Shown: positions 1,031 through 54,452 of the stretch, piece by piece
Layout: each line of letters starts with the position of its first letter
Position numbering within the stretch: the stretch's first letter is position 1
Origin: Trichodelitschia bisporula
Lineage: Eukaryota
Direction: 5' to 3'
DNA: 64,000 bases
NCBI GenBank assembly: GCA_010356995.1
Contig: ML996687.1
Location: 1,055,803-1,119,802, forward strand
Made by a program: the position numbers and the translations under genes
The notes under the pieces: generated by a model
Databases searched by the model: none
What the model was told of the DNA's origin: nothing
The model's input: the letters and a program-made list of their open reading frames with translations, nothing else

Positions 1031-3164
1031 CTACATCGCACCCGCTTCTTGCTGCGACTGCTTCCACTTCTGTGCCATAGCCAGCAGGTTCGAAAGCTTG
1101 GCCTCCCGCTCGTCGTCGGCAGGGAATAACCAATCCATGTACTCCTCGAAAGTATCGTCGTCCAGCTTCCTCCGCTTCTTTACACGGCTGGGCATCTGCT
1201 TTTCCACCTTTGCCAGATCTGCGGCTGTTCCGTGAGTAGTCTCGAACGACTTCCACGCATTGAGAAGAACCACACGCTGTTCATGGGTTAAACGTAGTCC
1301 ATATGCAAAGGTTTGAAGGGGGCTCACCTCTTCTTTGAGTTCCTGTTCTTTCATGACTTTGTAAGCCCTTTCGAAGACAGCCCTTGCACGCTTTTTGGCA
1401 TCATTGCTAATGGGCTTCTCCTCATCCTCGTTCTCGTCTTCCTCTTCGCCTTCGTCCGGAACGTTGATCTCAAAATGAGCGTAAGATATCCAGACCTTGA
1501 CATGAGATGTCTTCTGTAACAGCCGCTCGTACAGCTGCCGAGCGCGGTCGTATTCTTGTTGCTCAGTCTCAAAGTCGATGAACTCCTTCCAGACAAGTTC
1601 GGGCATGTCGAGCATTTCCTGATCAATGGCAAGCTCGAAGATAGCGCGAGTGCGATCGGAATCGTCGAGACCGCGTTCTAGTTCGGCAAAAGCCTTCCAG
1701 GCTTCCGCATTTGCAGGGTTCCAGCTGACGTACTTTTCATAGAGCTTCCGACACCTGTCAAATTCGTAGAGCTTGATCTCAAGCTCAATGTACCCTTTGT
1801 ACAGCTTGTCCTTCGGGCACATGCCAATAGCCTGACCAAGGGTTTTCCGAGCTGCCTGGAGTTGCATTTGACGTATCTCGAATCGCGCCTTGTTCAGCCA
1901 AACCTTAGCGAAAGTGAATTTCTTGTGAGGTATGAGCTTGATGCACTCTTGGTAGATCTGAGCCACCCGGTCCATGTCCCGAGGGGTCGTCTCCTCCCAG
2001 GTGGCATAGAAGAGAAACAGGTAAATATACCTTCGCCAATAGCGTTTCTCTGGTGCTGGAGGAATTTGCGCTATTGCCCGTTCATAAACATCACGGGTAC
2101 GATCGATGTCGCCTGCAGTTTCCTCCAGTCGGGCAAGATCTATCCATGTGTCGTAGTTCTTCGGGTTCTGCTTCAGTTCCTCTTCATACTGAACTCTCCG
2201 CTTGGAAAGGACGACATCCTCAACACCGTCTTCATCGCCGAACTGTTTTTCGAATGTAGTGTACGACTTGTGAAGATTTACTGACTTCGACCGCGGCATC
2301 CGATCAAGAGCGAACTTATCTAAGTGGCATTAGCAAGCGGTCCAGTATTTGGCTGAATATCGACTCACATATGGCCCTGGCCCGCTCATACTCCTTCAAC
2401 CGGCTCTCGAATTTTGCAAACTCGATGAATATCCTTTCTGACAAGAAGTCTTCTCCGAGCTCCTCGATCGCCGCGGCGAACACCTCTCTCACCAGGTCGG
2501 TAGTGCCGTGTTCGGTTTCGAATCGAACCCACTTTAGCCACTGTGCTGGTTCCGGATGGACATAGGTTAACCGCCGAAATAACTCCCGGGCTCTGTCATA
2601 CTCTCCGTAGCGAATCTCCATCTTGATCGCAGCCGACCAGGCGGCCACGTCTGGCTCCCATTTCAGCCACCGCTCAAAGACCTCTCGTGTCCCGGCGACA
2701 TTTCCGAGCGTCTCTTCAACCGTAACATACTTGAACCATAGCTTGTCCACACGCGGGAGGATCGTCACAGCCCGATCCAGTAGATTCCGCGCATGCATGA
2801 TGTTCCGATTCAGCAGCTCCGCGTCTACGTATCGGAGCCATATGGTGATATTTGCTGGGTGTACATCGAGAGCACGCTCAAAAATGCTTCGCGCCCGGCG
2901 GAACTCCTTCTGCTCCAACTCCCATTGCGCATAGCGGAGGAAGTTGTTGATGTTGAGGCGGTTGCGGCGAACATAGTCTTCGAACTCCTTGCGCTTCCGG
3001 CCTTGGTATTCGTGCAACTCCTCTAGGTCGGCAAAGCGCGTGGTAGGGGTAGTCTGGGTGAGCTCTTGTCGGTCAACAGCCTCGCGGAGCAGTTGTTCAG
3101 CGGATATTTGCTGGGGAGCGGGAGCTTTGTTCTTGACCCGCGGCGGGCCCCGAGTCGATTCCAT
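1031..3164 (-). CDS. CLF1: Pre-mRNA splicing factor Clf1/crooked-neck (NTC, HAT repeats)
   Basis: [29 protein letters not shown]...[15 protein letters not shown] repeats; C-terminal [13 protein letters not shown]. Introns 2320-2368 and 1277-1327. Confidence 0.96.
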
Positions 3165-3521
3165 AATGGCGGTCAAGAACGATGTACTGTAGATGAGAGC
3201 AGAAAGTAGAGCAGGAGGATATTTGCAATGTTAATATTGTGCACGGCGTTGTCGCGACTGGTAACGTGAAGCTTTGACGCGATTGAGCGTCGTGGAAAAT
3301 CGCTCGGCCCGCAAATGCGGCTCGCCGGATGCCAAGTCTTTAGGCGTCTGCAGCGGCAGCCTATCGCTCGTACGTCGCGCGCCAGAGTGTATTCTCCTGT
3401 AACTTCGTCATCACTCCCTCATCAACGCGCCCACCCCAACAACGTCTACCAACTCCGAGCTCATTGCGCTCCTGATTTCCTGACCGGCAAACACACGACC
3501 GTCCACACCGAGTTGTCCACC

Positions 3522-5408
3522 ATGGCGACATTAGCGGATGAACTCCTCGCCGACCTCATGGACTCCGGGTCCGAGGGCGAAGGCGACGAAGCGCTGAACA
3601 ACTATCTGCAAGAGACAAATGGCGCAGTGAAGGGCAATGAAGAGCATGAATCATCTGCCGACGAAGATGAGAAAATGGACGTCGATCAGGATGAAGAGGC
3701 GATGCTTGCGGCCGCAGCAGCAGGAGGCAGCACTGTTTCCGAGATGCAAGACCATGAGGAGGCAAAAGCGAAGGTGGAAAAGTTGAACTTTGGGGCCATA
3801 TCCGACATCAGAAGTGTTGCTGGTCTTATGAAGACATTAAAGCCTATTATCGAGGTAAGCTCCATCTCTCCTTACTTTCTGTTGAAGTTTTTGAGTTTAC
3901 AACGACAGTTCTGACCTGCTCCACCACTTCAGAAAGTACGCCACTACCAAAGCCTTCCTCCGGAGAAGCAAACGAAGAACGTCGGTTCCATCGAAGACAA
4001 CCCCGAGTACCGTCTTTTGACCCAGGCCAATGCGCTCTCCACCTCCATCGACAACGAGATCATCCTCGTGCACAAGTTCATTCGAGATCACTACTCCGTA
4101 CGGTTCCCGGAGTTGGAGCGGCTTGTGGAGAGTCCGGTACTGTACGCTAAGACAGTTTCTATTATCGGAAACGGGCCGATGGAAGATTTGAAGGCTGTTG
4201 TTAACTCTAGTGACAATCCTGTCGGAGTTCCCCTCAGCCAGGTACTTGACGGACCGCAGCTGATGAGTGTCCGGATGGAAGCTACAACCACCCAAGGCCA
4301 ATCTTTGAGTGATGAGGCACTCCAAACAGTAATCCGGGCCTGCGAAATGGTGCTTCAACTGGACCAGGCAAAGAAGATCCTCACGGATTACGTGCAGTCA
4401 CGGATGAACATGTTTGCGCCGAACTTGACAGCCCTGATCGGTTCGGAAACGGCAGCCTTGCTCGTAAATGCATGCGGTGGCTTAAAGGGCCTTGCGAAGA
4501 CGCCTTCTTGCAACATTCCCAACATCGGCTGGAAGAAGCAGACATTCGGTCTAGCCACGAATGTCGGGGTTCGGCAAAAGGGCTACCTATTCAACTCCCC
4601 GATTGTGCAGAATATCCCGAATGACCTTAAGACGCAGGCCATGCGCATCGTAGCCGCAAAGCTTGTTCTCGCTGCCCGCTGCGATCAGGTACACACGACT
4701 CCGGATGGTGCGACTGGCGAAAAGCTGAAGGAAGACTGCGAGGAGCGACTCGAGAAGCTTACGGAAGCCGCTCCTAATAGAGGTGTCCGCGCACTTCCTG
4801 CCCCGGATGACAAGCCCTCGCGCAAGCGCGGTGGCCGCCGGGCCCGCAAGGCTAAGGAGCAGTATGCCATGACTGAGTTGCGCAAGGCACAGAACCGAGT
4901 GCAATTCGGTAAGGAAGAGCAAGAGGTTGGATACGGTACCGGAGAATCCACTAAAGGTCTCGGGATGGTAGGCCAAGCGGGGGATGGGCGTGTTCGCATT
5001 ACGCAAGTCGATCAACGCACAAAGGCGAAGCTCAGCAAGAAGAACCCCGGCTGGGGAGGCGCGACACCGGCCAATGGCCTTGCATCTTCTCTGCGTGGGT
5101 TTGGTCAGGGTGCTGCGCCTTCGGTGCTGAAGAACCATGGACTCCGTACAACTGGAGTGGGAACAGGCACGTCGTCTGTTATCGCATTTACACCGATTCA
5201 AGGGCTCGAGCTCATCAATCCGACGGTCAAGGATGAAATGGCTAGGAAGCGGAAGGCGGACGAAGATCGGTGGTTCAAGAGCGGGACGTTCACCCAAGTT
5301 GGTGGAAGCCAATCTCAGTCGAACGGCCAGGCGGAGCCAAAGGTGGATTCGGCTGGCTTCAAAGTTCCTGCTATCCCTGCGATCAAGCGGCTCAAGGCAG
5401 AGAAGTGA
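3522..5408 (+). CDS. PRP31: U4/U6.U5 tri-snRNP protein Prp31 (Nop domain)
   Basis: MATLADELLADL; IDNEIILVHKFIRDHYSVRFPELE; SRMNMFAPNLTALIG; RKRGGRRARKAKEQYAMTELRKAQNRVQFG. Intron 3855-3932. Confidence 0.96.
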
Positions 5409-5653
5409 GCGGAAGAGTACTGCATTTACTGGCGTTAACGGGGTCGGTACGGGCGTTAAACTAGATTCCGAGAGTGGGCACTGATATCCTTGAGATTTAG
5501 GACATATTTTTCAAGTGTTTCAATCAGTGAGAGACTGGCCTGTGATTGTGTATGTGCAATTTAGCCATGAGATAACAGCCATTCTAGCTTCCGTTACACC
5601 AGACCCCCTGCCTGCAATGCGCCATTCAATGCTGGGTATACAAAACCAACCTT

Positions 5654-8128
5654 TCACGAGCCTCCCCACGCTTCCCTCCTTTTAGCAGCCTGCTTCTTCA
5701 GAGACTTGATAAAGTTGCTCGTCCCCTTTAAATCTTTGTTCCGGCTCTTGTTGAACTCACGGTACGCCATGTCCTGACCGCCAGAGAGGTCGTCCAACCG
5801 GCCAGCCATGCGTCTCACTCCTGGTCCCTTCCTCGAGCCACCCTTCCCAACAGCACTGAACATGTCATCGGCGATCTTCTCCGACTCAGCCGTCATGTCG
5901 TTCTGTAACAAGACATTAACGAGCATCTCCTTGCGTTCCTGTGGGGTTGTGAAGGCGAGGTCGGGGAACTTGTCGATGCCGTTCAAGTGGGTGATGACTT
6001 TGAAGGCGTAGCCCTGATCAACCAAGAACGCCTGCCGTTTCGCCGCGTAATACATCTCCTGCGTGTCCTTCGAGACAAGGGTGTAGAAGAAAGCATTGAA
6101 ATTCTCGTCGCTGCGGCGTTTGGCCCGTAGAATGCGGCCAAGGCGCTGCGCTTCCTGCCGCCGACTGCCAAAGTGACTGGAGATTTGGATGAGGCAAGTT
6201 GCCTCCGGAAGATCAAGAGAAGTATCACCGATCTTGGAAAGGAAGATGGTGTTGATCTTGTTGTTGTGCTGGAAGTTCTCCAGAATACGCTGGCGCTCGT
6301 GATGGGGCGTACCACCGTAAATGTAGACCTTGTTGAGCTTTTTAGCGTACGCCTCGAGGGCGTAGACGTTATCGCTGAAGACAATGATTTTGTCCCCGCG
6401 TTTTTCATGGTAGTCAATGAGAAACTGACAGCACTGGAACTTGGTGGGGTTCATTGTGAATAGGAGCATGCGCTTGTTCGGCGACTTTGCGTCCAAGTAC
6501 GCCCTGTAGAAGTCGAGGGGCATCGGACACCAGACTTCGGCACACTGGACTTTGGCGATGTGACCCTGTTCGCTCAGTTCCTGCCAGTTGGCTTCATAGA
6601 GCTTCGGGCCGATGAGAAAATTCAGCTCAGTGATCTTGTCGTCTTCACGCAGTAGCGTGGCAGTGAGGCCGAGTTTCGAATGAGCCTTGACTCTGTAGGT
6701 TACCATCTGGAACATTTTGGCTGGAACGACGTGGACCTCGTCTAGCAGCATCAGGCCCCATTCCCGATGTTCGATGAACTCCATGACCTTCGTGGCATCG
6801 TGCGATCGCTTGCCAGATGTTGTCACCATAGAGTAGGTGGAAATAAGGATACCCGTGCTCCCAGAAAAGAGATCTTTCTTATCAGCAGTGAAGACGGCAA
6901 TGTCCTTGGGGTTGATGTTGGACCATTTCAGGAACTCGTTTCGCCATTGCACAACAGACATGGCACTCGTACAGAGAACAATGATGCCCTTCTTGACCGT
7001 GCAGGCAGCCGTGATGCCGACGAGTGTCTTGCCAGCGCCGCAAGGCAACACAATAATTCCGCTTCGCGAACGACCATTACCAAACATCTTCGACAAAGCC
7101 TGCTCCTGGTAGGGTCTGATTTTGGCAGAGGGCTTGAGATCGATGTCGAGGTTTGGATTGACTCTATCGTTCCGAAAGTCGTACTCTTCGGTGAGAGGCA
7201 GGCTTATGGCCTGGCATCGCTTACGAACTGCCTGTACGGACTCCCCTAGGATCTCAAACGAGTGCACCTCGTCAGCATCCTCATCATCGTCTTCATCCAA
7301 AAGTGCAGTTGCCATATTTTGGGCTCCGTCGACATCCTCGTCGCCCTCCGCTTCTACAACAGGATTCTGCTGAGCTTGCCCCCGCCTCGCATCGGCAAAC
7401 ATCTTTGTGCCAGGAATAGCCAAACCATCCATCTTAGGTGCTGCCTCCGTGGTAAACTCATGACTAGAGTCCATTCTGTACTGGCTGATGATGTCGTCCC
7501 GCAGAAACGTCTGAAGAACAGAAGGATCTGAGCTCTCGACGAAGTACTTTGTGTGCTTCAAGACCAATCTGGCCTTGCCATACGACTTCGTAGAAGTTAT
7601 TATGAAGTCGATGGTGGACTGCGGCAGCGGCGTCTTCGAAAACTTTTCCAGCTGCCGGATAATGTCCTCAGTTTGGTAGCCGACAGAAATAGCGGCGTAC
7701 AAACTGTTGTTTGTCATCGTGTACTCGTGAATGCGTGACACGCGCGACTGTGGCTCCGCAATGGCGATGAGGAAATCTTCAGCCTTTTTGAACGTCGGAG
7801 CGAAGCTCTCCACAATAATCCTACCCTTTATCGGGTCAATCCACAACGGCCGATCGAAGTGGTCATCCTTCAGAGTGAGATGACCGAAATCGCGTTCTTG
7901 GAACAAGGACGAGGCGGCATCATGCATAGAGTAATTTCCGTGGTAGTTGCTGGCGGAGAACTTGGACATCAACTTCGAGACGTTCTCCGCGTCATCACCA
8001 CTGAGCTCCCCATTCAAGTAGTCATCATCGCTGAGGCTTTCGACAGTGTTTGGTGTATTCGTACCAGATGCTACGCGCTTCGTAGTCCGATTGTTGGTCG
8101 TGCTGGTGGCTTTCCGTTTAGGAGCCAT
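5654..8128 (-). CDS. SSL2: TFIIH helicase/translocase XPB (Ssl2/Rad25)
   Basis: [67 protein letters not shown]; no intron evident; first ATG at 8128. Confidence 0.97.
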
Positions 8129-8515
8129 CGCAGTCAGACGCCACAAGCGGACGTCGCGGTTGTGTTTTCTCAAACCTTGGAGTACGTGATGGCGGAATAA
8201 AGAGCGGTGTTGAAGACGGGATAAGGTGCTAGCAGTCACAGAGCGGCGGTAGTGGATAGCGAACTTCGAGGAAATGCGGTCTGGGGAGTTGTACGGCGTT
8301 CAAGAAGGTGAAAGTAGGCGGCAGTCTGTCTGTGCTCAGGTCATCCTCCGGTGGCGTAAGCGCCAAGCCTCATGACTAGGGATACCCTACTTGATGCCTG
8401 AGGCTTGAACATGCAACCGCGCGCGCCCGCAGGCTGGTGCTTGCTACTTTACCATCCGAAACCTCCTCCCTTTGCCTCCCCAAATGTGAAGCGAATACCA
8501 CTAATTCTGCTTGCC

Positions 8516-11500
8516 ATGGACCTGAAAACATGGACGTCCGACTCGCTCACAAAGCTCGGAGGTTCGGATCCCACGGTCGTCGAGTTCGTTCTTGCTACGG
8601 CTTCCAATGCCAAATCCGCGTCGCAACTTCACGACAAGCTGGCAGGCTTCCTGGATGCCACAGACGATGATGTCCGCACCTTCGCCGACCAACTCTTTGC
8701 ACGCGCAGGCCATAAAACCAAAAACGTGGAAAGGGAAGGTCCAGTGCGCGTGGAGAAGAAGAAATACGCCCTAGTGTCAATGGAGGTTGATGAAACTCCA
8801 GTTGCACCACCAAAAAGTGCAAAGGGAGACAAAGGTAGTAAAAGGAGTGATAGGGGCGAGCGGCATGGAAAGGACAGGAAGAAGCTGAGAGGGACGAAGG
8901 GAGATTTTGAGGATCGCTGGGGGGATGTATCTGAGGAAGAGGAGGCGGGGGAGGAAGAATTTGAAGAGCCCATTCCCAGAAAGCGACGGCGCTTGGAAAC
9001 CGGATCTCCAATGCCCTCTGGACGCGACGAGGATAATGACGACCGAGAACTCGAACGCGAGCGGGAGCGGGACCGACAAGAGTTACAGGGGCTGGAGGAG
9101 AGGCTGAAGGAAAAGGATGATAAGAAGAAGCGGTTACGGGATGCTGACGCGCCAAAGGACACAGGGGACATCCGCGAGAAGTCTCGTCAGCAGTATCTCC
9201 GCAAGAGAGAGGCGGAAAAGGTCATTCTCCTCCGGAAGCAGGTTGAAGAGGAGGAGGAGGAGGAGCGGAGCAACCCCAACCTTACGGAACGAGAACTTAG
9301 AGAATTCAAACGGAACAGGGAGCTTCTTGAGATTGCAGAGGCCCGGTTGAAGGCACGAGAAGCAGCCGAGGACCGTGAAGGCTTCTACATTCCTGAAGTT
9401 GGCGAGATCAGCAAGCAGGAAACCCTCACCAAGCGAGTCAAGGAGCGGGAAGGCATCAGCGACATTCAGCTGTGGGAAGAGGAACAGACGAGACGGGCAA
9501 AAGCTACTGCGTCTCTTCGCACCCAGCGCGTCACTGAGGACGACTACGAATATGTCTTCGATGACAGCCAAAAACTGGACTTCATCCAGGGGGCTCAGAT
9601 CCCTGGGACCATGAACAAGGAGCAACTTTTATTTCAAAAGCAGATTGACGCCGCCCTGGCCGCTGAGGTCACTTTGCAGGAGAAGAGAAAGGAGCTTCCC
9701 ATGTTCCTATACAGAAAGGAACTACTTGACGCCCTCAAGGAACACCAGAACATGATCGTGTCTAGCGAGACCGGATCCGGAAAGACTACTCAGATCCCTC
9801 AGTATATTTTGGAAGAGAACTTGAATAGCGGACTCATGATTGGGGTAACCCAACCGAGGCGTGTAGCAGCCATGTCCGTCGCTGCTCGCGTAGCTGAAGA
9901 GAGAGGTACGAGGCTGGGCCAGGAGGTGGGATACAGCGTCCGATTCGAGCAGAAAATCAGCGAAAAGACGAAGATCAAGTTTTTGACGGATGGTATGCTC
10001 CTGCGCGAGCTTGTGGCGGACCCTACACTCAGTCAATACAGTGTCATCATGCTCGATGAAGCCCATGAAAGGACACTTAGCACCGACATGCTGCTTGCTT
10101 TTCTAAAGGATCTGAGTCGCGCTCGGAGCGATCTCAAAGTCATCATCAGTTCGGCAACTCTCAATTCAGCCAAGTTCAGTGCATTCATGGACGACTGTCC
10201 CATCTTCCATGTTCCTGGACGAACGCATCCGGTCACCACTTTATTCACCAGCGCCCCAGAGGCGTCGTATCTGGACGCTGCTGTCACTACTGTTTTCCAG
10301 ATCCATCTCTCGCAGCCTATGGGTGGCGATATTCTGGTGTTCTTGACCGGCCAAGATGATATTGAACTCGGGGTCGAAAGAATTGAGGAGACAATAAAAA
10401 AGCTCGGTAACCGAGCAAAACCGCTTGTAGTAATCCCCATCTACGCCAACTTGCCAAGCGAGATGCAGGCGCGCATATTCGAGCCAACCCCACAGGACAC
10501 TCGCAAAGTCGTTTTGGCCACCAATATTGCAGAAACTTCGCTCACAATCGATGGCATCAAGTATGTCATTGACTCGGGACTTGCCAAAGAAAACTTGTTC
10601 AACCCAGCTACCGGTACAGAAAGCCTCCAAGTTACCCCTATTTCCCGCGCCAGCGCCGAGCAGCGGGCCGGTCGTGCGGGTCGTACAGGGCCGGGCACGT
10701 GTCTTCGACTATACACAAAGTACAGTTACTACTCTGAACTGCAGGAAGAACCAGTACCCGAGATTCAGCGCAGCAATCTTTGCCAGCCTGTACTGTTCCT
10801 CAAGACCATCGGGGTCGATAACATCATCGAGTTTGATTTCCTCGACGCCCCTTCACCAGAGGCCCTCATTAAATCCCTCGAATTGCTCTACATGCTTGGT
10901 GCTCTTGCTAGTGACGGCCGGGTCACACGCCTTGGTCGCCAAATGGTCGAGTTTCCGACGGATCCACAGCTCGCCGCTGCGCTCATTGCGTCGCACAAGT
11001 TTGGCTGTGTGCAGGAGATCCTCACCATCGTTGCCATGCTCGGCGAAGCGGCTAACCTCTTTTTCCGTCCCAAAGACCAAAAGGTACACGCCGACAGTGC
11101 CCGCGCACGTTTTACCCATAAAGATGGGGGTGACCACATGACGCTGCTGAATGTATACAACGCGTGGGTCGACACGGAGTACAGCATGCCATGGTGTCGC
11201 GAGAACTTCGTACAGTACCGTTCGCTGCAGCGCGCCCGGCTGGTGCGTGAGCAGCTTGAAGCGCTCTGCGACCGGGTTGAGATCCCCACTGACTCGTCTG
11301 TGGGGGCCAGCGATCATGTCTCCGTACTCAAGGCACTCCTCGCCGGCTACTTCAGTCATACGGCGACGTTAACACGCGACGGCCAGCATTACCGCACGCT
11401 CCGGTCGAATCTGACAGTCCGCATTCATCCCAGCAGCGTGCTTGCAGCGGACGGGATGAAGCCCAAGGTGGTCATGTACCATGAAGTGGTGCAGACGTCT

Positions 11501-11653
11501 GCGGATTGGATGAGGCAAGCCGCGCCTATTGAAGCGGCATGGCTCGGCGAGGTAGCGCCACACTTTTGGAAGAGCGGCGAGGTGGAGAAGGTAGTTGGAC
11601 ATGGGCGGAAGATGCCTAAAGGGCAGGGAGCGCCGGGTGCGGGCAAAATGTAG
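8516..11653 (+). CDS. PRP2: Spliceosomal DEAH-box RNA helicase Prp2/DHX16/Cdc28
   Basis: SETGSGKTTQIPQY, TQPRRVAAMSVAARVAEE, DEAHERT, SAT, QRAGRAGR; N-terminal REKSRQQYLRKRE and EDDYEYVFDD motifs of the DHX16 clade; single exon. Confidence 0.9.
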   Translation: MDLKTWTSDSLTKLGGSDPTVVEFVLATASNAKSASQLHDKLAGFLDATDDDVRTFADQLFARAGHKTKNVEREGPVRVEKKKYALVSMEVDETPVAPPKSAKGDKGSKRSDRGERHGKDRKKLRGTKGDFEDRWGDVSEEEEAGEEEFEEPIPRKRRRLETGSPMPSGRDEDNDDRELERERERDRQELQGLEERLKEKDDKKKRLRDADAPKDTGDIREKSRQQYLRKREAEKVILLRKQVEEEEEEERSNPNLTERELREFKRNRELLEIAEARLKAREAAEDREGFYIPEVGEISKQETLTKRVKEREGISDIQLWEEEQTRRAKATASLRTQRVTEDDYEYVFDDSQKLDFIQGAQIPGTMNKEQLLFQKQIDAALAAEVTLQEKRKELPMFLYRKELLDALKEHQNMIVSSETGSGKTTQIPQYILEENLNSGLMIGVTQPRRVAAMSVAARVAEERGTRLGQEVGYSVRFEQKISEKTKIKFLTDGMLLRELVADPTLSQYSVIMLDEAHERTLSTDMLLAFLKDLSRARSDLKVIISSATLNSAKFSAFMDDCPIFHVPGRTHPVTTLFTSAPEASYLDAAVTTVFQIHLSQPMGGDILVFLTGQDDIELGVERIEETIKKLGNRAKPLVVIPIYANLPSEMQARIFEPTPQDTRKVVLATNIAETSLTIDGIKYVIDSGLAKENLFNPATGTESLQVTPISRASAEQRAGRAGRTGPGTCLRLYTKYSYYSELQEEPVPEIQRSNLCQPVLFLKTIGVDNIIEFDFLDAPSPEALIKSLELLYMLGALASDGRVTRLGRQMVEFPTDPQLAAALIASHKFGCVQEILTIVAMLGEAANLFFRPKDQKVHADSARARFTHKDGGDHMTLLNVYNAWVDTEYSMPWCRENFVQYRSLQRARLVREQLEALCDRVEIPTDSSVGASDHVSVLKALLAGYFSHTATLTRDGQHYRTLRSNLTVRIHPSSVLAADGMKPKVVMYHEVVQTSADWMRQAAPIEAAWLGEVAPHFWKSGEVEKVVGHGRKMPKGQGAPGAGKM

Positions 11654-12421
11654 TGAAGGATCATCGATACTTCTCCAATGTACATGATAGACAGCATTCG
11701 CGTTGCTGATATTTGTTACCAATTGATTCTCACGTTGTCCTGCTACATTCTACTGACAGAGCTGCGGGAACAGTAATCCTGTGACATGTGAACGTCTCCT
11801 TTCTTTTTTTCGTTTCGAGAGCATCACTCGCAGAACGAATGCTGTGTATTGGCCAAAATGGATTACCGCATGCGGTCGAAGGAGGTCTGTGTGGGAACAA
11901 AGGCACTGTGGCTTGGGATGCACAAGCGTGCCAAGGATAGAGCGCGGTTGCGCGTCTCCGCACGGACCCCGCTCCCTCCAAGCGGGCAGGGCCAAGAAGT
12001 TCGTCCAGTTGCGGCCCATGGAAAGGCAGCAAAGAGAGGGAACGAGAGAGTCACCGAACCGGCCATTCCCTCGACTGCACCATCACCACACTTTACACAA
12101 GCACCATCACCGTTATCCTTTCTCGACTCTTTCGCACATTCTTTACCTACGACCCTCGCCGCACGTTGGCACCTTCCCGCTACCCTGTTTTGCTCACCCG
12201 CACTCACCAATACTCTCATCCCGTAGTCCACACCTCCATTGCTGTCTGCTCGCTCAGACTGTGCCGTTCATTAGACGTGGCGGGCTTGGTGGTCAAGCGG
12301 TAGTAGCGACTTGCACTTGATTGCTGCTGCGCTTACGCCATCACCATCCTCTCGCTCTGCTCTGCGGAAGTCTTCAAAGCCCCTAGGACGTCACAGGCCT
12401 GCGCACCGCACCGCTACGGCC

Positions 12422-14580
12422 ATGAGTGCTTCGCCAGCCGCGCCGCCTGGCAGCACGCCAAACGGCGCTCCCCCACAGGCCCGCCGTCGGAGGCCTCCAC
12501 CGAACCCCCTCGTTGCCAACCAGCGTGGCCCGCGAAAACCTCCACCTGTCAAGCGCCTCGCTCCTGCTGCGCATATGCCATCTCCCGCTGCTGGACCGGG
12601 TGTGCCGTCTCCTATGTCAACAGGCACAGCCTCCTTCACGGAACCCGGATCGCCGTTGCCGGAGGATAAGCCGTCCGTCTATCCCATCTTCACCACCAAG
12701 CGCGCTTTGATGGAAGGCATGCGTCACCATGTCGCGCGGCTGCAGTCCAAGCAGACAATAGACGTTATGGATAACAGTTACTTCTCCCCTCCGGTCCGTC
12801 TCCATCGCCGCGACCCCCGTGCCCCCCCTGGTACTTTCGGCAGTGCGGCCGATCTCAAAGAAGAAGAAGAGGATGATAAGGAGAGGGAGATGGCGGAGGC
12901 TGCGAGGCAGGAACGTCAGCGCATCAAGGAGGCAAATGCAAAGCTGATTGCGCCTGCCGCACCGTCTAAGAAGAAGGCGCCACAGCAAGGCTTCTTCAAG
13001 AAAAAGGTCGAACAAGTCTGGCGGACTGACGAGGACCCTGAGGACAGAAAGCGGAGCCAGTTACGATACGAGGAAGCTCTCCCTTGGCATCTTGAGGATC
13101 AGAATCACCAGCATATCTTGCAAGGGTTCTATGAAGCGGCCTTGTCCGAGTCCCATGTTATGCTATTAATGGACGGCGACCACTTCCGGGTGCTGCCGGT
13201 TGAGAAGTGGTACCGTTTCAAGGAGAAGAACAAGTTCAAGCACGTGGATCTCGATGAGGCCGAAGCCACCATGAGCAAGAAAGTCAAGGAGCCGCGCTGG
13301 TTCATGGAGTCGCAGAAGGAAAACGAGCGAAAGAAAATGATGGAGAAGATGGCAGAGCATGCGCGAGGCCGCCTGCGGGTCGGCGCTCGGGATGAAAAGG
13401 TGATCAAGACTGAGGAGGGGTACGAAGTTGATCAGCCCCCAGAAGATGTCGACTGGAATGTCGAGGAAGACTTTGCCGATGATGAAGAGAATCCTATCCT
13501 CGAGGGTGACGAAGATACACAGCAGATGGCGGAGGAACGCATCAAGCGTGATCAGCTTGCTGCCAATGCCTTTGATCTTAGGGACGCTCAGGACGTTGAC
13601 GAAGAGGATGAACGCGAGCGTAAGCTTGCAGAACTCGCTGAGAAGCAGGGGAAGGAGACGCGTCAGGCCCTGATGAAGCTTGAAAAGAACTTCAATTACA
13701 AGGACGACGACAACAAGAACCCCTATGTTGATGTAAAGTCTTTCAGCCTATTGAGTACCTTCCTGCTAACTTCTGTAGTCGGATTCTGAGGCGGACATCT
13801 CCGAGGACGATGATCTCTTCAAAGACGACGGAGAAAAGGATAAGAAAGAGGATGGCGCCGATGACAGTGAAGGCGACAGCGACAAGAGAGGTAGCCAAAA
13901 AGCAAAAGCGAGGGCAGAGAACAAGAAGCCAATGGCCGGTTCCTCGTCGAAAGGGACAAATACACCCAACGGAGGCAAGCCGAACGCTGCTGGCAAGTCA
14001 ACCACCTCTCTCAAGCGTCCTGGTTCTCCCAATCTCTCCGAAGCCAGCGGTAATGAGTCTTCCCGCAAGAAGGCAAAGAAGCAGCATGAGTCTGCGGACA
14101 AGCCTCCGACCTCTTTGAAGGACTTGCAGGCCAGGCAGCTTGCCCAAAAGCATGCACGCAAAGGTGCAGGATCTGGCAGCGATACGGATGCTACTGCTGG
14201 CGGAAAGAAGCCCGGGCTAAAAATTAAACCCGGTGGCTCGAAAGCTGGTACACCGAACGGCTCCCGGGCTGGGAGTCCTGCCGTTGGCGCTTCTTCAAAT
14301 GGAAGCAGGGCTGGCAGTCCTCAAGGTGAGCGGAGACTATATGTGTTCTTTTTCTGAAATGTTGGATGCTAACTGCATGCTAGCCATATCTGACAGCTTA
14401 CCGAGCGCCGAGGCTATTCTTCAGTCCATTCCAAAGGAGGGTATCATGCTTGCGGAACTGAGCAGAAAGTTCCGTGCCCGCGTTGATCAGAGCAAGCTCA
14501 AGGACTTTGTGCGCCTTGTCAAGACCATCACACATTTCGACCCAGCAACAAAGCAAATATTCCCGAAACGGAATGCCTGA
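12422..14580 (+). CDS. TFG1: TFIIF large (alpha/RAP74) subunit
   Basis: GMRHHVARLQSK, PPVRLHRRDPR, LRYEEALPWHLED, LPVEKWYRF, EEDFADDEE, C-terminal winged helix. Introns 13733-13778 and ~14326-14383. Confidence 0.9.
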
Positions 14581-15194: not shown

Positions 15195-15218
15195 TGACTC
15201 AAGTTCACGAGGAGTCAT
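15195..15218. promoter_or_regulatory. Two Gcn4/CpcA elements upstream of VAS1
   Basis: TGACTCA at 15195-15201 and GAGTCAT at 15212-15218. Confidence 0.62.
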
Positions 15219-15443
15219 TTTATTCCTCTGCATCCTCTAATTAAACCCCCCCTTAAGCACTTCGCCTAGGAAAAAGCCGCCTCAAGTGCTACTTTTTCCA
15301 TTGGGATCCACAGTGCGTGCGAGAGCTCCCCCCAATCATCCACAATTCTGTTCCGAGCGTGCTTCCTACGCTCGTCGCTCCGCACAACTCGACCCCGCAC
15401 GCTCCCCCGCACATCAGCACACCCCACGCGCAACTTCTCAAAG

Positions 15444-18400
15444 ATGGCTCTTAACGCCGCGTCGCATAACATCCGTAGGCACTTAATTGCTCCCAATTTG
15501 TGTAAGCTGCTAACTGTCATCAATAGCGGGTGAGGAGACGGGACCTGTCTCCGGCCAACCCCCAGCCCTGTCCGACGAGACCAAGGCTGCGCTACTTGGG
15601 TCTGCCGAAAAGGATATCACCGGCCAGAGTGTACCGGGGCAGGACGGAGGAGAAAAGGACGATGACAAGAAAGTGAAGTCGGAGAAAGAACGTATGGTTT
15701 CCCCCCCTGGAGATATGAACTGTGGACACTGCTTACCGCCGCCTACAGTCGCGAAGGAACGCGCAAAGGAAGAAAAGCTGCGGAAATTCTTAGAGAAACA
15801 AGCGAAGAAGGGCACCGCTCCTGCCGCGAAGCCGAAGGAAACTAAGAAGCCAAAGGCAGAGGTCGAAGTCCTCCCAGAGTACGTTGAGGAGACACCAAAG
15901 GGCGAGAAGAAAATCTTGAAGCCGCTCGACGACGTTTTCCACAAAGCATATCTTCCCAAAGTCGTAGAATCAGCTTGGTACGACTGGTGGGAGAAAGAGG
16001 GTTTCTTCCAGCCTCAGCTTGACGCCGACGGCAAGACGAAGGGGGCGGGATACTTTGTCATTCCGATCCCTCCCCCGAATGTAACTGGCGCCCTTCACTG
16101 CGGTCACGCCTTGGGCAACGCTCTTCAGGACTCTCTAATTCGGTGGCACCGTATGAGAGGTTTTTCTACCTTGTACGTTCCGGGATGTGATCACGCTGGT
16201 ATCTCCACACAGTCCGTCGTAGAGAACATCCTCTGGCGGCGGGAAGGGAAGACGCGACATGATCTAGGGAGAGAGGAGCTCGTCAAGCGCATCTGGGCGT
16301 GGAAGGGTGACTACCATGGGCGCATCAACCACGTGCTGAAGCGTCTGGGGGGTTCGTTTGACTGGACCCGGGAGGCTTTCACCATGGACGAAAACCTCAC
16401 TGCAGCTGTGACGGAGACATTCGTCCGTCTACATGAAGAGGGATACATCTACCGGTCCAACCGTCTTGTAAACTGGTGCAGCCGTCTTCAAACCGCGCTA
16501 TCCAACTTGGAAGTGGACCAAAAGGAGTTAACAGGTCGCACTTTGTTGGACGTACCCGGTTACGATAGGAAGGTCGAATTTGGCGTTCTCACATTCTTCA
16601 AGTACCCCATCGATGGCTCTGACGAATTCCTTACCGTTGCCACGACTCGTCCCGAAACTATGCTTGGTGATACCGCCATCGCCGTCCACCCGAACGACAA
16701 GAGGTATACCCACCTCATTGGAAAGAAGGCAAAGCACCCCTTTGTCGACCGGCTTCTGCACATTGTTGGTGACGACTACGTGGATCCTGAATTCGGTACT
16801 GGAGCTGTAAAGATCACACCAGCTCACGACCCCAACGATTTCGCCATCGGCCAGCGTCATAAGCTCGACTTCATCAACATTCTCAACGATGACGGTACTT
16901 TGAATACCAATGCCGGAAGATTCAACGGAGTCAAGCGATTCGATGCTCGGTACCAGGTCATTGACGAACTTAAGAAGGCCGGCCTGTACGAGAAATGGGA
17001 GAACAATCCCATGAAGGTGCCCCTTTGCAACAAGTCGAAGGATGTTATCGAGCCTCTGATGAAGCCTCAGTGGTGGATGCGTATGCGTGAAATGGCCGAT
17101 TCTGCTTTGGATGTCGTCCGTTCCGGCGAGGTGAAGATTCGGCCAGACACGGCGGAGCGCTCATACTTCCGTTGGCTCGAGAACATCAACGACTGGTGCT
17201 TGAGCCGACAGCTCTGGTGGGGCCATCAGATTCCGGCCTACTTCGTCCAGATTGAAGGCGAGCACGGCGATGAGGTAGACGGCAACCTCTGGGTTACCGG
17301 CCGGACAGAGGAGGAAGCCTTCAGGAAGGCAGAGGCGAAGTTTCCTGGCAAGAAAATCACCCTCAAGCGTGACCCCGATGTCCTTGATACCTGGTTCAGC
17401 TCGGGGCTCTGGCCCTTTTCAACCTTGGGATGGCCAAACAATACCAAGGACCTTGAGAATTTCTTCCCTACCTCACTTCTAGAGACCGGCTGGGATATCC
17501 TCTTCTTCTGGGTGGCTCGAATGATCATGTTCAGCCTCAAGCTTACCGGAAAGGTCCCTTTCAAGGAGGTCTACTGCCATTCCCTAGTCCGAGACAGTGA
17601 GGGACGCAAGATGTCGAAGTCCTTGGGTAACGTCGTCGACCCAGTCGACATCATGGATGGTATTTCGCTTCAGGCTCTCAACGATAAACTGCTGGCAGGC
17701 AATCTCGACCCGAAGGAACTGAAGACGGCCACCAAGTACCAACAGACAGCTTTCCCGCAGGGCATCCCTGACTGCGGTTCAGATGCTCTGAGATTCTCGC
17801 TGATCCAGTACACCACCGGTGGAGGTGATATCGCCTTCGACGTTAAGGTCATGCATGGGTACCGTAGGTTCTGCAACAAGATCTATCAGGCCACCAAATA
17901 CGTTCTCGGCAAAATTGGCGACGATTTTGTGCCTCGTCAGACATACCACAAAACTGGCAAAGAGTCTCTGGCTGAACGCTGGATTCTCCACAAGCTAAAC
18001 TACGCCGCGAATAACGTCAATAAGGCTCTTACCGATCGGGAGTTCTCGCGGTCCACTCAGATTGTGTACAACTACTTCTACGATGAGCTTTGCGACGTTT
18101 ACATCGAGAACTCCAAAGCCATCATTCAAGAGGGTACGGAGGAGGAGAAGCGGTCGGCCATGGACACTTTGTACACAGCGCTGGAGGGCGCCCTTACGAT
18201 GATCCACCCGTTCCTGCCTTTCCTGTCCGAGGAGCTGTGGCAACGCCTTCCACGTCGACCTAATGATACAACGCCGTCAATCACTATTGCAAAGGTATTA
18301 TAAGCCGGAACGTTGCATTATCGCTTGCTAATATCTGCAGTATCCCGAATTTGATATTGCACTAGAGGATCATGAGGCCGAGGAGGCGTACGAGCTTCTC

Positions 18401-18922
18401 CTTGGTTGCACCAAGGGTATTCGGTCCCTCATGTCCGAGTACAAGCTCGACGAAGGCAAAGGCAAGAGATTATGCTCCCTATTTGCGCCTCTTCTAACTA
18501 TAATCGCAGTCTTTGTCCAAGCTACAGATGATGCAACCTACCAGACGGCCAAAAACGAAGTCCAGGCCATCAAGTCCCTGGCCGGCAAGGGTGTGGCGTC
18601 TGTTGAGATCCTCTCCAAGGCCGAGCCTACGCCTACAGGCTGTGCCGTCTTCGTCCCCTCATCCAAGGCGGCCGTGTTCCTGGAAGTCAAGGGGCGTGTC
18701 AACATCGAAGAGGAGATCAAGAAGGCGCAAACCAAGCTTAAAAAGGCTTTGGAGGCAGCTACCAAGCAACGCAAGGTTGTGGACGCGCCTGATTTCCAGG
18801 GGAAGGTCAGCCTAGCGGTGCAAGAGGTGGAGCGCAAGAAGCTGGAGGAGTCTCTTGCTGAGCAGAGCAATTATGAGAAGAGTATTCAGCAGTTTGAGCA
18901 GCTTAAGCTCGAAAGTAAGTAG
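15444..18922 (+). CDS. VAS1: Valyl-tRNA synthetase (cytosolic form from ATG 15444; possible mitochondrial form from upstream CTG 15348)
   Basis: [13 protein letters not shown] (HIGH), [37 protein letters not shown]. Introns 15475-15526, 15692-15748, 18295-18340 and 18462-18509 (GC-AG). Confidence 0.97.
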
Positions 18923-19960: not shown

Positions 19961-20018
19961 CGTTCATGAAGCAATTGGTATCTACTGAAGTGCACTGGAC
20001 TGCGTTTACTTCTTCACA

Positions 20019-35229: not shown

Positions 35230-35544
35230 GGCATTGAGGGGCGGAGGAAGGAGATGGTGAAGCCTTCAGTTTGCGGAGACGCTCGCGGAGGTTTGGATGG
35301 AAAGTTTGGAGGTGACCTTTTTGCCTTGGCGAGCTTACAGCCATTGGGCTGGTGGGTGGCGCTCGATGCAAGCAAACCCCCACCTTGCATGGGATGACTC
35401 CAAAAGCTACACTCTACAGACTTTGCCCCTCCACTTCGCTGATTCAACCCAATTTGCTTTCACAAAGGTTGTGTTTGCTGTATCTGCGCTCTTCTCTCGC
35501 TCTACCACCCACTGCACTACTAAACCACTTGCAATACACTCACC

Positions 35545-37482
35545 ATGGCCGCCGCCGCTATCAAAGAATGGATTGAGCGCGCAACCCAGTTCAGCGTCAA
35601 GGACCGCAAGGCCCTCGAGGCTGCTTTTACCGAGCTCGACGCCCACCTCACCTTGCGCTCGTACATAGTCGGGTACTCTTTGACGGATGCGGACGTGGCT
35701 GTCTGGAAGGCTATTCGCGAGAATCACCTTGCCTACTCCTTCATCAAGCAGGGCCTGTTGGTCAACGTTTCCCGCTGGTTCCGGTACATTGAGGAGACCA
35801 ATCCGACAGTCACATCTCTGCCCCAGATGCCGGCCAAGTCTAAGGCTGCTACGGAAGAAAAGAAGAAGGAGGAGAGCGGCAACTTCGAAATCGGACTTGA
35901 GGATACGTCTAAGGGCGTTGTCACGCGCTTCCCGCCGGAGCCTTCGTATGTATTGTGTCATAGATTTTGAAGCAAAGCTAACTGAAGCAGAGGCTACCTC
36001 CACATCGGCCATGCCAAAGCAGCAGTCATCAATGACTACTTTGCGCACGACAAGTACAAGGGTACCCTGATCCTCCGCTTCGACGATACCAACCCCACCA
36101 AGGAGAAGGAGGAGTTCCAGGACTCAATCGTCGAGGATCTCGAGCTCCTCGGAATCAAGCCGGACAAGCGCACCCATACCAGCGACTATTTCCAAGAGCT
36201 GCACGACTACTGTGTGCAGATGATCAAGGAAGGGACCGCTTATGCCGATGACACCGCGCAGGAAGTTATGCGACAGCAGCGCATGGAAGGCATCCCTAGC
36301 AAGGAACGCGATGCATCACCCGACGCCAACCTCGCTCACTTCAAGGAAATGGAGAAAGGGAGTGAGGAGGGCAAGCGTTGGTGCATCCGGGCGAAGATTT
36401 CTGTCGACGACCCGAACAAGGCCATGCGTGACCCGGTCATCTACCGCTGCAATCCGCAACCCCATCACCGCACGGGCTCGACGTGGAAGATCTACCCCAC
36501 ATATGATTTCTGCTGTCCTATCGTGGACAGCATCGAGGGTGTGACGCACGCTCTGCGTACGACCGAGTACAAAGACCGTGACGCGCAGTACCAGTGGTTC
36601 CTTAAGGCGCTGCGCCTGCGGAACGTCTACAACTGGGACTTTTCTCGCCTGAACTTCATTCGCACCCTGCTTTCAAAGCGCAAGCTGACCAAGTTTGTCG
36701 ACACGGGCCTGGTTTGGGGCTGGGACGACCCGCGCATGCCGACGGTGCGGGGTGTTCGTCGCCGCGGGTGCACTGTTGAAGCTCTGCGCGAGTTCATCCT
36801 CAAGCAGGGCCCGTCAAAGAACATTGTCAACCTGGACTGGACGACTTTCTGGGCTACGAACAAGAAGTACATTGACCCCATCGCTGGGCGCTACACGGCT
36901 GTCGACAACAAAAACAGCGTGACGGCGACGGTGCGCGGAGCGTCTGCGCAGCCACATTCTGAGCAAAAGGAGCTGCACCTGAAGAACAAGGAGCTCGGGA
37001 CCAAGAAGGTGGTATACAGTTCGAGCATCGTTCTGGACCAGGCGGACGCGTCATCGTTTGCTCAAGATGAGGAGATTACCTTGATGAACTGGGGTAATGC
37101 CATCGTGCGCAGCATCAGCCGCAACGATGCAGGCCTCGTGACAGGCCTGGAGCTCGAGTTGAACCTCGCCGGCGACGTCAAGAAGACGAAGAAGAAGGTG
37201 ACCTGGCTCAGCAAGGACCAAGCGCTGGTTCCTGTCGAGCTGGTGGACTTTGATTTCCTTATCACCAAGGACAAGCTGGATGAGGACGACAATTACGAGG
37301 ACTTCCTCACGCCGCAGACTGAGTTCCGCACCGAGGGGCTGGCGGACGAGAACGTGGTGCGGTTGCGTGAAGGCGATATCATCCAGTTTGATCGCAAGGG
37401 GTACTTTAGGGTGGATCGGGCATACTCCGAGGGGAAGCCGGCTGTGTTCTTCCAAATCCCGACCGGAAAGGGCGGAAAATAG
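35545..37482 (+). CDS. GUS1: Cytosolic glutamyl-tRNA synthetase
   Basis: GST-like N-terminus; VVTRFPPEPS|GYLHIGHAK; LRFDDTNP; LLSKRKL; WGWDDPRMPTVRG. Intron 35946-35990. ATGACTC at 35394-35400 upstream. Confidence 0.97.
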
Positions 37483-37906: not shown

Positions 37907-39600
37907 ATGGGTGGCGACCTCAACCTCAAGAAGAGTTGGCACGTTGCCCTTTTATCGAACCAGAAGAAGGTGTGGCAAGCCGAGCAAGATGCGCTGGAGG
38001 AGCGGAAGAAGATCGAACTCCTCAAGCGCGAGCGCGAGGAGGAGCGTGCGATGGAGGAGCTCAATCGATTGCAAGAGGAGCATGGCGGGAAAATGAGGCA
38101 GCAGCGTGTCGACTGGATGTACAGTGGTGCGACTGCTGGGCCAGGCGGCACGAGTGAGGAGCAGGAAGCGTATCTTCTCGGTGAGTACTTCCACATGTTT
38201 GCAGTACGGAGTGCTAATGCTATCCAGGCAAGAGACGCGTGGACACTCTCGTCCTCAAGACCGACGAATCTAGATCTGTCGACAAAACTGCGAGTGAAAA
38301 CGCCATGGTCGGGGATTCAAAGGCAAACACAAGCCGTGACATCACTTCAAAGGTCGCCTTGGACCCGCTCCTTGCCATCCAGAAGCAGCGCCAGGCTGCC
38401 CTTGAGAAGCAGATGTCCGATCCTCTCATGCGGCGCCGCCTACTACAGGCGGCTACTGCTGAAGACCCAGCACGCAAGCACCGCAAGCACCACCGCGATG
38501 ACGAGGACCGCGACGGTCGAAGCAAGAGCCGGAGACACAGCGACGAGCACGACCACCACCGGAGCTCTCGCCGCTCGCACAGGCACAGATCCAGATCATG
38601 GTCTCCCGAGCGCTCCCGCCCTTCGCGTCATCATCGCAGATCACGGTCGCCGAGACGGGGCGAGGACAAACGGGATCCGGAGTACCGGAAAGATTCGCGG
38701 CGTTATCGGGAACGGTCACGATCGTGGTCACGATCGCGGTCCCCCCGCCGGGAGGACGCGAGGCGTCGTCGCTCTCGCTCTAGGTCACCTCGGCGAGCCG
38801 AGCGGCGACAGCATGAGTCCGCCCGGGATGAGCGGCCGCGTCGTCGTTCACCCTCGCCATCCCGCGTGGATCCCCGGGAATCTAAGCACAAACCCTCGCA
38901 TCGAACCGCGTCTCGCTCGCCATCGCGGTCGCCGTACCGAAAGGCTGAGCAGAAGACTTCACGTCGGTCACCTTCTCGCTCACTGTCGCCGTATAGTAGG
39001 CGAAAGCGGCTTGCTTCACAATCGACTCAGACCCGTTCACCGTCGCCTTATCGGGCGACGAGACGCGACATAAGCGCTAACCCGCGCGATGGACCTACCA
39101 GCATCTACAACGGCCGGAGGGAGAACAGCAAACGCGATGAAGCGCGCGGGGATTTATACAATGCGGCACCTGACTCTTGCGGTCGCCTTTCTCCCGCTCG
39201 GTCGGCTGCGGGACCACGCCATTCCCGCCCTGGCAACGTTGACAACGGTCATGCCAGCAACGGCCATGCTAACAACGGGAACGGTATCTCAGCGACAAAG
39301 TCAAGCGGATCGGCACCTCTAGCTCAAAGCCAAGAAAAGGCATCTGGTGCTGATGCAGAGCGCGCGGCCAAACTGGCGGCCATGCAAGCGGGCGCTGCGA
39401 AGCTTGAGGAAGCGCGCAATCGCCGATTGGCGGAGTTGGAGGCGCAGGATGCCCTTGAGCGGCAGATGGAGGAAGAGAAGCGGGCGCGGAAGGGCGGCAA
39501 GTTCGTTGCGGGGCTGCGTCGCCAGGCAGAAGTGGTTGGACTCGAGGGGCGGCTTGCAAAGGGGCGCAGTGGGTTTGGAGGGTTCGAGGAGTCCTTTTAG
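37907..39600 (+). CDS. CWC25: Step-1 splicing factor Cwc25 with long RS-rich region
   Basis: [50 protein letters not shown]. Intron 38181-38227. Confidence 0.93.
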
Positions 39601-40133
39601 ATGTTTCACGATGCAAATGAGGCGCAGTGGTTTGGGGGAAGCTGTATATGCTTCTTGATGCTTGATCAGGCATTTTCCGGGGTAGTGTTGGCGGGAGTCA
39701 TGGTACGAGAACTGTAGTCTAAGGAACCTACCGTACCGTACTACTTCCCGACGTATTTGGTGCACATACGAAAACGCGAGTCCAAAGGGGCATTTTATCT
39801 CGTCACGCCATGCAACTTTTTGGCCATCCGAGAAGCCGTCGTCGGAACGTTTACCATCCAGACTGCCGTCTATGGGCCGATGGCTAATAAATGATCCGAA
39901 AGGGGCAAGGCGCCGCACGCACTCACGCGTCGACCCCCTAAACGACGTTGAAGAGCCAATGATAGGACCTCATCTTGCAGCCGCAACCCTCAATGTCAAA
40001 AGTGTGCCAGGGATCGGCCGCTCAACAGGATTCAACGGTCAAACTCTCGCCCACCGCCATTCTCCTCCTCACCACCGTCGCCTTCTTATAACCCTCAGTC
40101 GCTTGGTTTGTGTGTTTCGACAATCACTGCGCG

Positions 40134-41891
<1,758 letters not shown>

Positions 41892-53632: not shown

Positions 53633-54092
53633 CGGAGCTCTCCTGACGGAGCTCCAGACGAGCCGGACTCGAGGGCATTCAGGAGATCTAGAGGCCTCCT
53701 GCATCATGAGTAGATGGACAGAAATGGTCACGATAGCATTCACGTTTCTTCACCTTCAGCACAAATGCAATCCAAATGAACCCTTTGCTATAGTAGTAAT
53801 GATGAAGTCATCCAACCATGCCATCATCGTCAGCCTTATCTCCGCAAGGCTAAATTCTAGCGTGCCGTGGCGCACTCCTGTGGCAGTGCAACCCTGCAGC
53901 CACCAGCGCGAAAGCTTGGGTTCTGGAAGCTCGACGCCCCCAACACACCACCAACGTTCAACGCCCAACTCTCTATCTCTCCTTCGCCCTGCGCAGCGAC
54001 ACACACCCTCAGTCGCGTGCCATCCGCCCTGGAAGCTAAAACCTAAAGCCCCAGCAGAGGCCGGCCCGTCCGCGCCCGCGGCAACCGTCGCC

Positions 54093-54452
54093 ATGTCCAC
54101 CGGTCCCTTGCGCGACTACCTCAACAGTGAGCCGCTCCTCTCAAGTCTTCTAGAAGCCTTTACTGACCACCCGCCCACAGGCAAGGTCCTTATAATCACA
54201 GTTGACGGCCGCGCGCTGCAGGGCACATTGCTCATGTTCGATAACCAGACCAACTTGGTGCTGCAAGACACGGTGGAGCGCATTGTGCGGCCGGTTGACG
54301 ATCCGGAGCCTAGCTCGGAGACTGAACACGGGCTGTATGTTATACGTGGGGATACGGTGGTGGTGTGTGGGTTGGTGGATGAGGAGATCGACTCGGCGAT
54401 TGATTGGGGCAAGGTGCGAGGGGAGGTTATTGGGACGACGAAGCACACGTAG
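54093..54452 (+). CDS. LSM8: U6 snRNA-associated Sm-like protein Lsm8
   Basis: LRDYLN|SKVLIITVDGRALQGTL..DNQTNLVL; HGLYVIRGDTVVVCGLVDEEIDSAIDW. Intron 54127-54180. Confidence 0.92.
   Translation: MSTGPLRDYLNSEPLLSSLLEAFTDHPPTGKVLIITVDGRALQGTLLMFDNQTNLVLQDTVERIVRPVDDPEPSSETEHGLYVIRGDTVVVCGLVDEEIDSAIDWGKVRGEVIGTTKHT

Follow-up and report, generated by a model that had tools for sequence, protein, structure and literature searches.

Seven genes for spliceosome proteins, CLF1, PRP31, PRP2, PRP46, SPP382, CWC25 and LSM8, lie within about 54 kb of the genome of Trichodelitschia bisporula (Dothideomycetes, Phaeotrichales), in a 64,000-nucleotide stretch of contig ML996687.1 (positions 1,055,803 to 1,119,802) that we call the window. 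Their grouping is specific to the T. bisporula lineage, or is at least kept nowhere else among the species compared, and the head-to-head pair CLF1-PRP31 is the sole evolutionarily maintained unit among the arrangements we compared. The best overall explanation, which we favor with moderate confidence, is a lineage-specific co-location brought about by reshuffling within a pile-up of essential genes, with no dedicated splicing cluster. On this account the seven are probably ordinary, separately transcribed, single-copy housekeeping genes, whose co-location is real and peculiar to this lineage.

The seven spliceosome genes and their transcription

An earlier note on this DNA had named these seven genes and called them mutually non-homologous, and both statements are correct. 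Each gene was found at or near the position given there and was identified at ortholog level by Pfam and PDB matches. The Pfam scan covered 403 translations in six frames (272 stop-to-stop open reading frames of at least 90 residues and 131 shorter or unassigned ones from the gaps), and no eighth splicing gene was found among them across the whole window. The genes, and the one promoter region with which we are chiefly concerned, are as follows:

1034-3164, minus strand: CLF1 (Crooked neck / Cwf4), subunit of the NineTeen Complex (NTC); coding sequence with HAT repeats (Pfam) and PDB matches
3165-3521, no strand assigned: shared promoter region of CLF1 and PRP31, which stand head-to-head; 357 bp from ATG to ATG
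3522-5408, plus strand: PRP31, U4/U6 and tri-snRNP (small nuclear ribonucleoprotein) protein; Nop and Prp31_C domains (Pfam)
8516-11653, plus strand: PRP2/DHX16, the DEAH helicase that activates the Bact complex; Pfam and PDB matches
20426-22006, plus strand: PRP46/PLRG1/Prp5, NTC-related WD40 protein; Pfam and PDB matches
22302-24461, minus strand: SPP382/NTR1/TFIP11, G-patch disassembly factor; G-patch and GCFC domains (Pfam)
37907-39600, plus strand: CWC25, step-1 factor; Cir_N and CWC25 domains (Pfam)
54093-54452, plus strand: LSM8, best matched in PDB by Lsm8 orthologs; one intron predicted from sequence at about 54128-54181

For CLF1, the top PDB matches were S. pombe Cwf4, human CRNKL1 and yeast Clf1, with Prp6 and Syf1 far below. 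PRP2 was matched best by helicase chains of the 6fa9 family (863 bits) and by human DHX16 (849 bits over residues 3-1038, that is, full-length with the N-terminal region included), as against 700 bits for DHX8 (Prp22), 665 for DHX15 (Prp43) and 619 for PRP16. The 6fa9-family chains, labeled only 'putative mRNA splicing factor' in the search output, we take to be Chaetomium thermophilum Prp2. PRP46 scored 467-711 bits against PRP46, S. pombe Prp5 and PLRG1, the remaining WD40 proteins reaching at most 321; SPP382 found S. pombe C1486.03 (Ntr1) and human TFIP11 at the top of its list, and CWC25 solely the human and yeast CWC25 proteins. The short LSM8 product scored 70.7 bits against S. pombe LSm8 and 62.2 against human LSm8, compared with 44 for Lsm1.

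CLF1 has two introns (1277-1327 and 2320-2368) and is covered by an mRNA contig at 857-3274; PRP31 has one, at about 3853-3932, and CWC25 one that separates two reading frames. Neither the second CLF1 intron (1277-1327, 51 nt) nor the one predicted in LSM8 (54 nt) contains a stop codon or shifts the frame, so that a plain reading of the open frame passes through both and adds spurious residues. PRP46 and SPP382 are arranged tail-to-tail, with their stop codons 295 bp apart.

Transcription was assessed with contigs from the public runs X3 and X4, whose RNA label is a guess and of which only intron skipping was used, and from X1, a DNA run. The X3 and X4 contigs omit short GT..AG intervals at the expected introns of CLF1, PRP31 and two neighboring genes, TFG1 and VAS1, whereas the X1 contigs do not, and they form separate units, one per gene or convergent pair. 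This supports the gene models of the first 20 kb and indicates that each gene there is its own transcription unit. The contig of PRP2 begins at 8456-8465, which makes the ATG at 8516 its likely start. Between CLF1 and PRP31, contigs end at 3274 and at about 3410-3467, leaving a gap of about 135-190 bp.

The earlier note had proposed a selected splicing-factor gene cluster; on such a reading, the proximity of spliceosome genes would itself be favored, for co-regulation or for dosage balance of factors acting at successive stages. We consider this improbable. There is no sign that the genes are transcribed jointly or answer to one regulator: the contigs are separate, unrelated genes are interleaved, and k-mers common to the promoters of six splicing genes did not exceed the null given by 13 other promoters of the window, a comparison of low power. 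Non-splicing essential genes are moreover interleaved throughout the group.

Two further observations concern transcription around PRP2. A second compact head-to-head promoter, at 8129-8515, stands between SSL2 and PRP2, a transcription helicase and a splicing helicase, with contigs ending at about 8205 and about 8460, some 250 bp apart. Near the other end of PRP2, a low-depth X3 contig skips 52 bases at 11705-11758 (minus strand) with CT..AC ends, equivalent to a GT..AG intron on the minus strand. The skip overlaps the 3' end of PRP2, where there is no Pfam-supported gene, and possibly reflects an antisense or unannotated spliced transcript.

Gene order in other fungi

Gene order elsewhere was read from consecutive GenBank accessions or locus tags and from the contig membership of homologs. 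By this measure, CLF1 and PRP31 are neighbors, or at least share a small contig, in 9 of the 11 other species in which both were located, confirming the conservation that the earlier note had put forward as a check. Their accessions or tags are consecutive in Tothia fuscella, Neofusicoccum ribis and Saccharata proteae among the Dothideomycetes, in the Onygenales Blastomyces dermatitidis and Malbranchea cinnamomea (Eurotiomycetes), in Chaenotheca gracillima and Sclerophora amabilis (Coniocybomycetes) and in Thelocarpon superellum (Thelocarpales). In N. parvum both genes are on one 10,034-bp contig, and five further contigs of 8,364 to 79,630 bp also hold the two. The pair is broken in Aplosporella prunicola, with PRP31 on a 129-kb scaffold and CLF1 on one of 1.43 Mb, and in Icmadophila ericetorum, where the genes are on different contigs of a metagenome-assembled genome (MAG). 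The lists contain no Leotiomycetes, Sordariomycetes or Eurotiales, and outside T. bisporula adjacency means accession order and contig membership, without orientation or spacer DNA. Within these bounds, the adjacency is ancient and reaches across four or more class-level lineages of Pezizomycotina.

Fungi are known to have conserved divergent pairs in which the spacer is short and the members are functionally related (Davila Lopez et al. 2010, PMC2871058). CLF1-PRP31 resembles them in its head-to-head arrangement here with a spacer below 1 kb, in the related function of its members and in its conservation across classes. It differs in being absent from the text of that paper, as far as the available part of it goes; in six supplementary files of it, 'prp31' appears only in a human TFPT/PRPF31 row (file 6), and the single row with 'clf1' (file 4) is co-directional, in tables that may be thresholded or incomplete. 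In mechanistic terms, CLF1-PRP31 would be one maintained bidirectional unit with a common promoter region of no more than 357 bp. A deeply conserved pair of splicing genes with a promoter common to both is also what a selected splicing-factor cluster would contain, and this part of the earlier proposal stands.

A naming oddity touches the same two genes. In a MAG of Watsoniomyces obsoletus, a PRP31 homolog (P0302) bears the product name 'NineTeen Complex (NTC) component', under which sister MAGs list CLF1. Public annotation has probably confused the names here, for two genes that are neighbors in most species examined.

The long-range order is another matter. The genes placed in other genomes were CLF1, PRP31 and PRP46, with PRP2, SPP382, CWC25 and LSM8 outside the comparison. 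In T. bisporula, CLF1 (KAF2405272) and PRP46 (KAF2405278) are 6 accessions apart on a contig of 2,035,263 bp, a spacing that calibrates accession order as gene order. In other Pezizomycotina with megabase-scale scaffolds, PRP46 shares a scaffold with CLF1 or PRP31 in 8 of 8 species and is within 50 genes of it in none of the 8, against the distance of 6 here. CLF1 and PRP46 are separated by 57 genes in Microthyrium, 95 in Sarea, 311 in Aplosporella and 314 in Pseudovirgaria; PRP31 and PRP46 by 89 in Xylona, 159 in Patellaria and 284 in Phyllosticta capitalensis; and in Neodothiora, CLF1 or PRP31 is 127 genes from PRP46 by locus tags. Relative to the scaffold, these distances run from about 0.07 to 0.63 with a mean of about 0.26, compared with 0.33 expected at random, on a rough estimate of genes per scaffold. 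The genes fall on separate contigs in the fragmented assemblies of Thelocarpon superellum, Chaenotheca, Sclerophora, Dirinaria and Delitschia, and no contig shorter than 500 kb was common to the best 120 PRP46 matches and the CLF1 or PRP31 lists.

Scaffold membership kept at 8 of 8 with scattered distances points to mesosynteny and not to a conserved cluster. In filamentous ascomycetes, mesosynteny is described as chromosome membership being kept while order is randomized (Hane et al. 2011, PMC3219968). The likeness is that CLF1, PRP31 and PRP46 stay on one scaffold at distances of 57-314 genes; the difference is that mesosynteny predicts scrambling and not, by itself, many genes of the same function side by side in one lineage. 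Under the explanation we favor, the genes would already have been together on one ancestral chromosome, and intrachromosomal rearrangement would then have left them close in T. bisporula and far apart in other species. The local pile-up would thus, we infer, reflect reshuffling, perhaps with selection on essential genes generally, and not on splicing genes as such.

As to the selected splicing-factor cluster, its cluster-level arrangement is missing from every other species examined, and at this level the earlier proposal did not stand. In S. cerevisiae, where the seven are YLR117C, YGR091W, YNR011C, YPL151C, YLR424W, YNL245C and YJR022W, they are dispersed over chromosomes VII, X, XII, XIV and XVI with no adjacency (PMC3628832). 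A full-text literature search turned up no paper on a fungal spliceosome gene cluster. One analogy is offered by the fungal metabolic clusters (GAL, DAL, nitrate assimilation, secondary metabolism), in which non-homologous genes of one process likewise stand side by side. Those clusters, however, form unbroken blocks of dispensable genes that a dedicated regulator induces together, often conserved or passed on by horizontal transfer, whereas the splicing genes here are interleaved with unrelated essential genes, presumably constitutive, and not conserved as a group.

We also searched at least 62 metagenome loci anchored on SSL2, with 10-kb flanks, by tblastn with 23 proteins of the window, and found no CLF1, PRP31 or ortholog-level PRP2 beside SSL2; with SSL2 at about 52-65% identity in long matches, these loci are distant and uninformative on Pezizomycotina. 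Locus L013 has one DEAH match at 40% identity near SSL2. In locus L029, a short contig, a CWC25/Cir_N-like segment (2556-2789, minus strand) with 49% identity and a score of 47 bits is found some 800 bp downstream of SSL2, and it may belong to any Cir_N protein.

Essential-gene density and the enrichment

Six of the seven splicing genes fall within a compact run that extends from the window start to about 41.8 kb and is about 82% coding by a rough sum; LSM8 sits 12 kb past it, surrounded by ordinary genes. The same run holds subunits of TFIIH, TFIIF and TFIID, two or three tRNA synthetases, SEC18 and CYP51. Its essential-type genes other than those for splicing are:

1-648, minus strand: 5' part of a spliced gene that runs off the window, with high coverage; probably phenylalanyl-tRNA synthetase alpha (FRS2-like), on weak Pfam evidence
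5654-8128, minus strand: SSL2/RAD25/XPB, TFIIH helicase, a non-splicing gene (Pfam, transcript contigs)
12422-14577 (end approximate), plus strand: TFG1, TFIIF alpha subunit; introns at 13733-13778 and about 14324-14381
15200-18922 (approximate), plus strand: VAS1, valyl-tRNA synthetase with several introns; the synthetase call was read from sequence
24941-27628 (upstream exon bounds approximate), minus strand: SEC18/NSF AAA ATPase (Pfam)
30189-33551, plus strand: TAF1, largest TFIID subunit (DUF3591 domain)
35261-37482 (N-terminal exon bounds approximate), plus strand: GUS1, glutamyl-tRNA synthetase, confirmed by Pfam and a follow-up match
39686-41766 (start approximate), plus strand: CYP51B-type sterol 14-alpha demethylase (ERG11), the last gene of the dense run

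With identities from Pfam and PDB and essentiality taken over from yeast, 14 of the 17 genes at 1-41.8 kb are orthologs of yeast-essential genes: the phenylalanyl-tRNA synthetase alpha-like fragment, CLF1, PRP31, SSL2, PRP2, TFG1, VAS1, PRP46, SPP382, SEC18, TAF1, GUS1, CWC25 and CYP51. The enrichment accordingly looks not specific to splicing: the splicing genes seem to belong to a wider local accumulation of housekeeping genes that the cell cannot do without.

For the enrichment itself, we used a hypergeometric test with assumed totals of 100-200 spliceosome genes among 8,000-12,000 genes, which gives an estimate and not a genome permutation; for scale, the yeast list in PMC3628832 has 109 spliceosome proteins. 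Under random gene order, 0.25-0.62 splicing genes would be expected among 25-31 genes, and the probability of at least seven is 3e-9 to 2e-6. Multiplication by the roughly 470 windows of a genome raises this to at most 1e-3; the claim that the grouping goes beyond random gene order holds under these totals. Fourteen essential-type genes among the 31 of the whole window are themselves improbable (P 5e-7 to 6e-5, with essentiality taken over from yeast). The earlier note had named conditioning on essential genes as a check, and here its result is mixed: with 7 of the 14 essential-type genes being splicing genes, P rises to about 1-2e-5, and to 1e-4 to 9e-4 when conserved pairs (CLF1-PRP31, possibly PRP46-SPP382) are merged into single units. 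The enrichment thus shrinks strongly and is still nominally significant, the latter being a point in favor of a splicing-factor cluster.

Four points weigh against the explanation by reshuffling. Seven splicing genes among 14 are nominally improbable even after conditioning, and reshuffling alone offers no comfortable explanation for this genome by itself. The test totals are assumptions and the essentiality labels are carried over from yeast. The comparison with other genomes placed three of the seven genes, CLF1, PRP31 and PRP46. Finally, the scrambled order elsewhere is compatible with the tight arrangement being either derived or ancestral.

Selection could instead have acted on the run as an island of essential genes, maintained or assembled for an advantage of clustering such as a low-recombination domain or a permanently open, low-noise chromatin domain with many bidirectional promoters. 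The splicing genes, as a sizeable fraction of all essential genes, would then be carried along as passengers. The 14 of 17 yeast-essential orthologs, the low probability of 14 among 31 and the two compact head-to-head promoters, CLF1|PRP31 and SSL2|PRP2, are in keeping with such an island. Set against it, the sole long-range link compared (CLF1/PRP31 to PRP46) is not conserved in any of the 8 other species, and essentiality is carried over from yeast. On balance we regard it as rather unlikely.

Essential-gene clusters of yeast offer a close precedent. Pal and Hurst are said to have linked them to low recombination in 2003, and Batada and Hurst, reportedly, to low noise in 2007. As in those clusters, indispensable genes of unrelated function here stand densely together with compact spacers and head-to-head promoters. 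The differences are that the run here, with 14 of 17 genes over 42 kb, is far denser and longer than yeast clusters are known to be, and that its host is a filamentous ascomycete. For the yeast clusters, low recombination or low noise have been proposed as reasons (Wang, Lercher & Hurst 2011, PMC5654408).

A wider version of the same idea is that the run is the right-hand 42 kb of a supercluster of roughly 100 kb of essential gene-expression and secretion genes, a selected chromosomal domain and not a product of random reshuffling. It would contain spliceosome genes, Pol II general factors, tRNA synthetases, NSF and CYP51. Such a domain might be, for example, recombination-cold or constitutively open, and partly built from ancient bidirectional units like CLF1-PRP31. 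We put this forward as a tentative possibility.

It is very improbable, in our judgment, that the grouping is simply an extreme draw from a quarter of a million windows and many functional categories, with no structural or selective cause. The choice of this case was post hoc, many fungal windows multiplied by many categories could yield one like it, and with pairs merged and essential density allowed for, P is 1e-4 to 1e-3.

Further features of the window and the interest of the region

In total, 25 genes of the window have Pfam or PDB support, besides the weak phenylalanyl-tRNA synthetase alpha fragment and up to about 8 unsupported open reading frames, so the figure of about 29 genes given earlier was fair. 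The fragment at 1-648 has a transcript-like contig with an intron at 171-219 and a PheRS_DBD3 match (E 4e-4) below the Pfam cut-off; a PDB search with its N-terminal part gave no match. SSL2 is convergent with PRP31 and head-to-head with PRP2. CYP51, directly downstream of CWC25, has Aspergillus fumigatus CYP51B as its closest match (570 bits). The dense run also includes a pyridoxamine-oxidase-like gene before PRP46, a GH16 hydrolase before TAF1 and mitochondrial ribosomal protein L1 after TAF1. The looser stretch after CYP51 begins with a GT25 glycosyltransferase, a phosphopantetheinyl transferase, a phosphoserine aminotransferase, an ATG3/ATG10-like gene and a gene of the inositol-phosphatase family, and continues with LSM8, a class II hydrophobin, a Kelch protein and an emp24 protein. 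Across the whole window, Rfam found no small nuclear RNA gene or other family, and ARAGORN no tRNA gene.

Interspersed among the splicing genes within 28 kb are three general-factor subunits of RNA polymerase II, SSL2 (TFIIH), TFG1 (TFIIF) and TAF1 (TFIID) (5654-14577 and 30189-33551). By a rough estimate, about 0.1 subunits of such factors would be expected among 31 genes, against the three present.

These findings touch the old question of selection on eukaryotic gene order outside metabolic clusters. Essential-gene clustering and conserved divergent pairs are kinds of feature already known, and the present case is of interest mainly as part of a possible larger supercluster. CLF1-PRP31 is a clean case for asking if a bidirectional promoter ties the amounts of two spliceosome subunits to each other, and the region as a whole packs essential genes unusually densely, in a lineage-specific run within a group of fungi that has otherwise scrambled its chromosomes. 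Should the supercluster be real, essential genes would be clustered here to an extent far beyond that known for yeast. Selection on the run, if it has occurred, would connect the clustering of essential genes with genome evolution by mesosynteny; if it has not, the case serves as a warning that a striking functional enrichment in one genome can vanish once relatives are checked.

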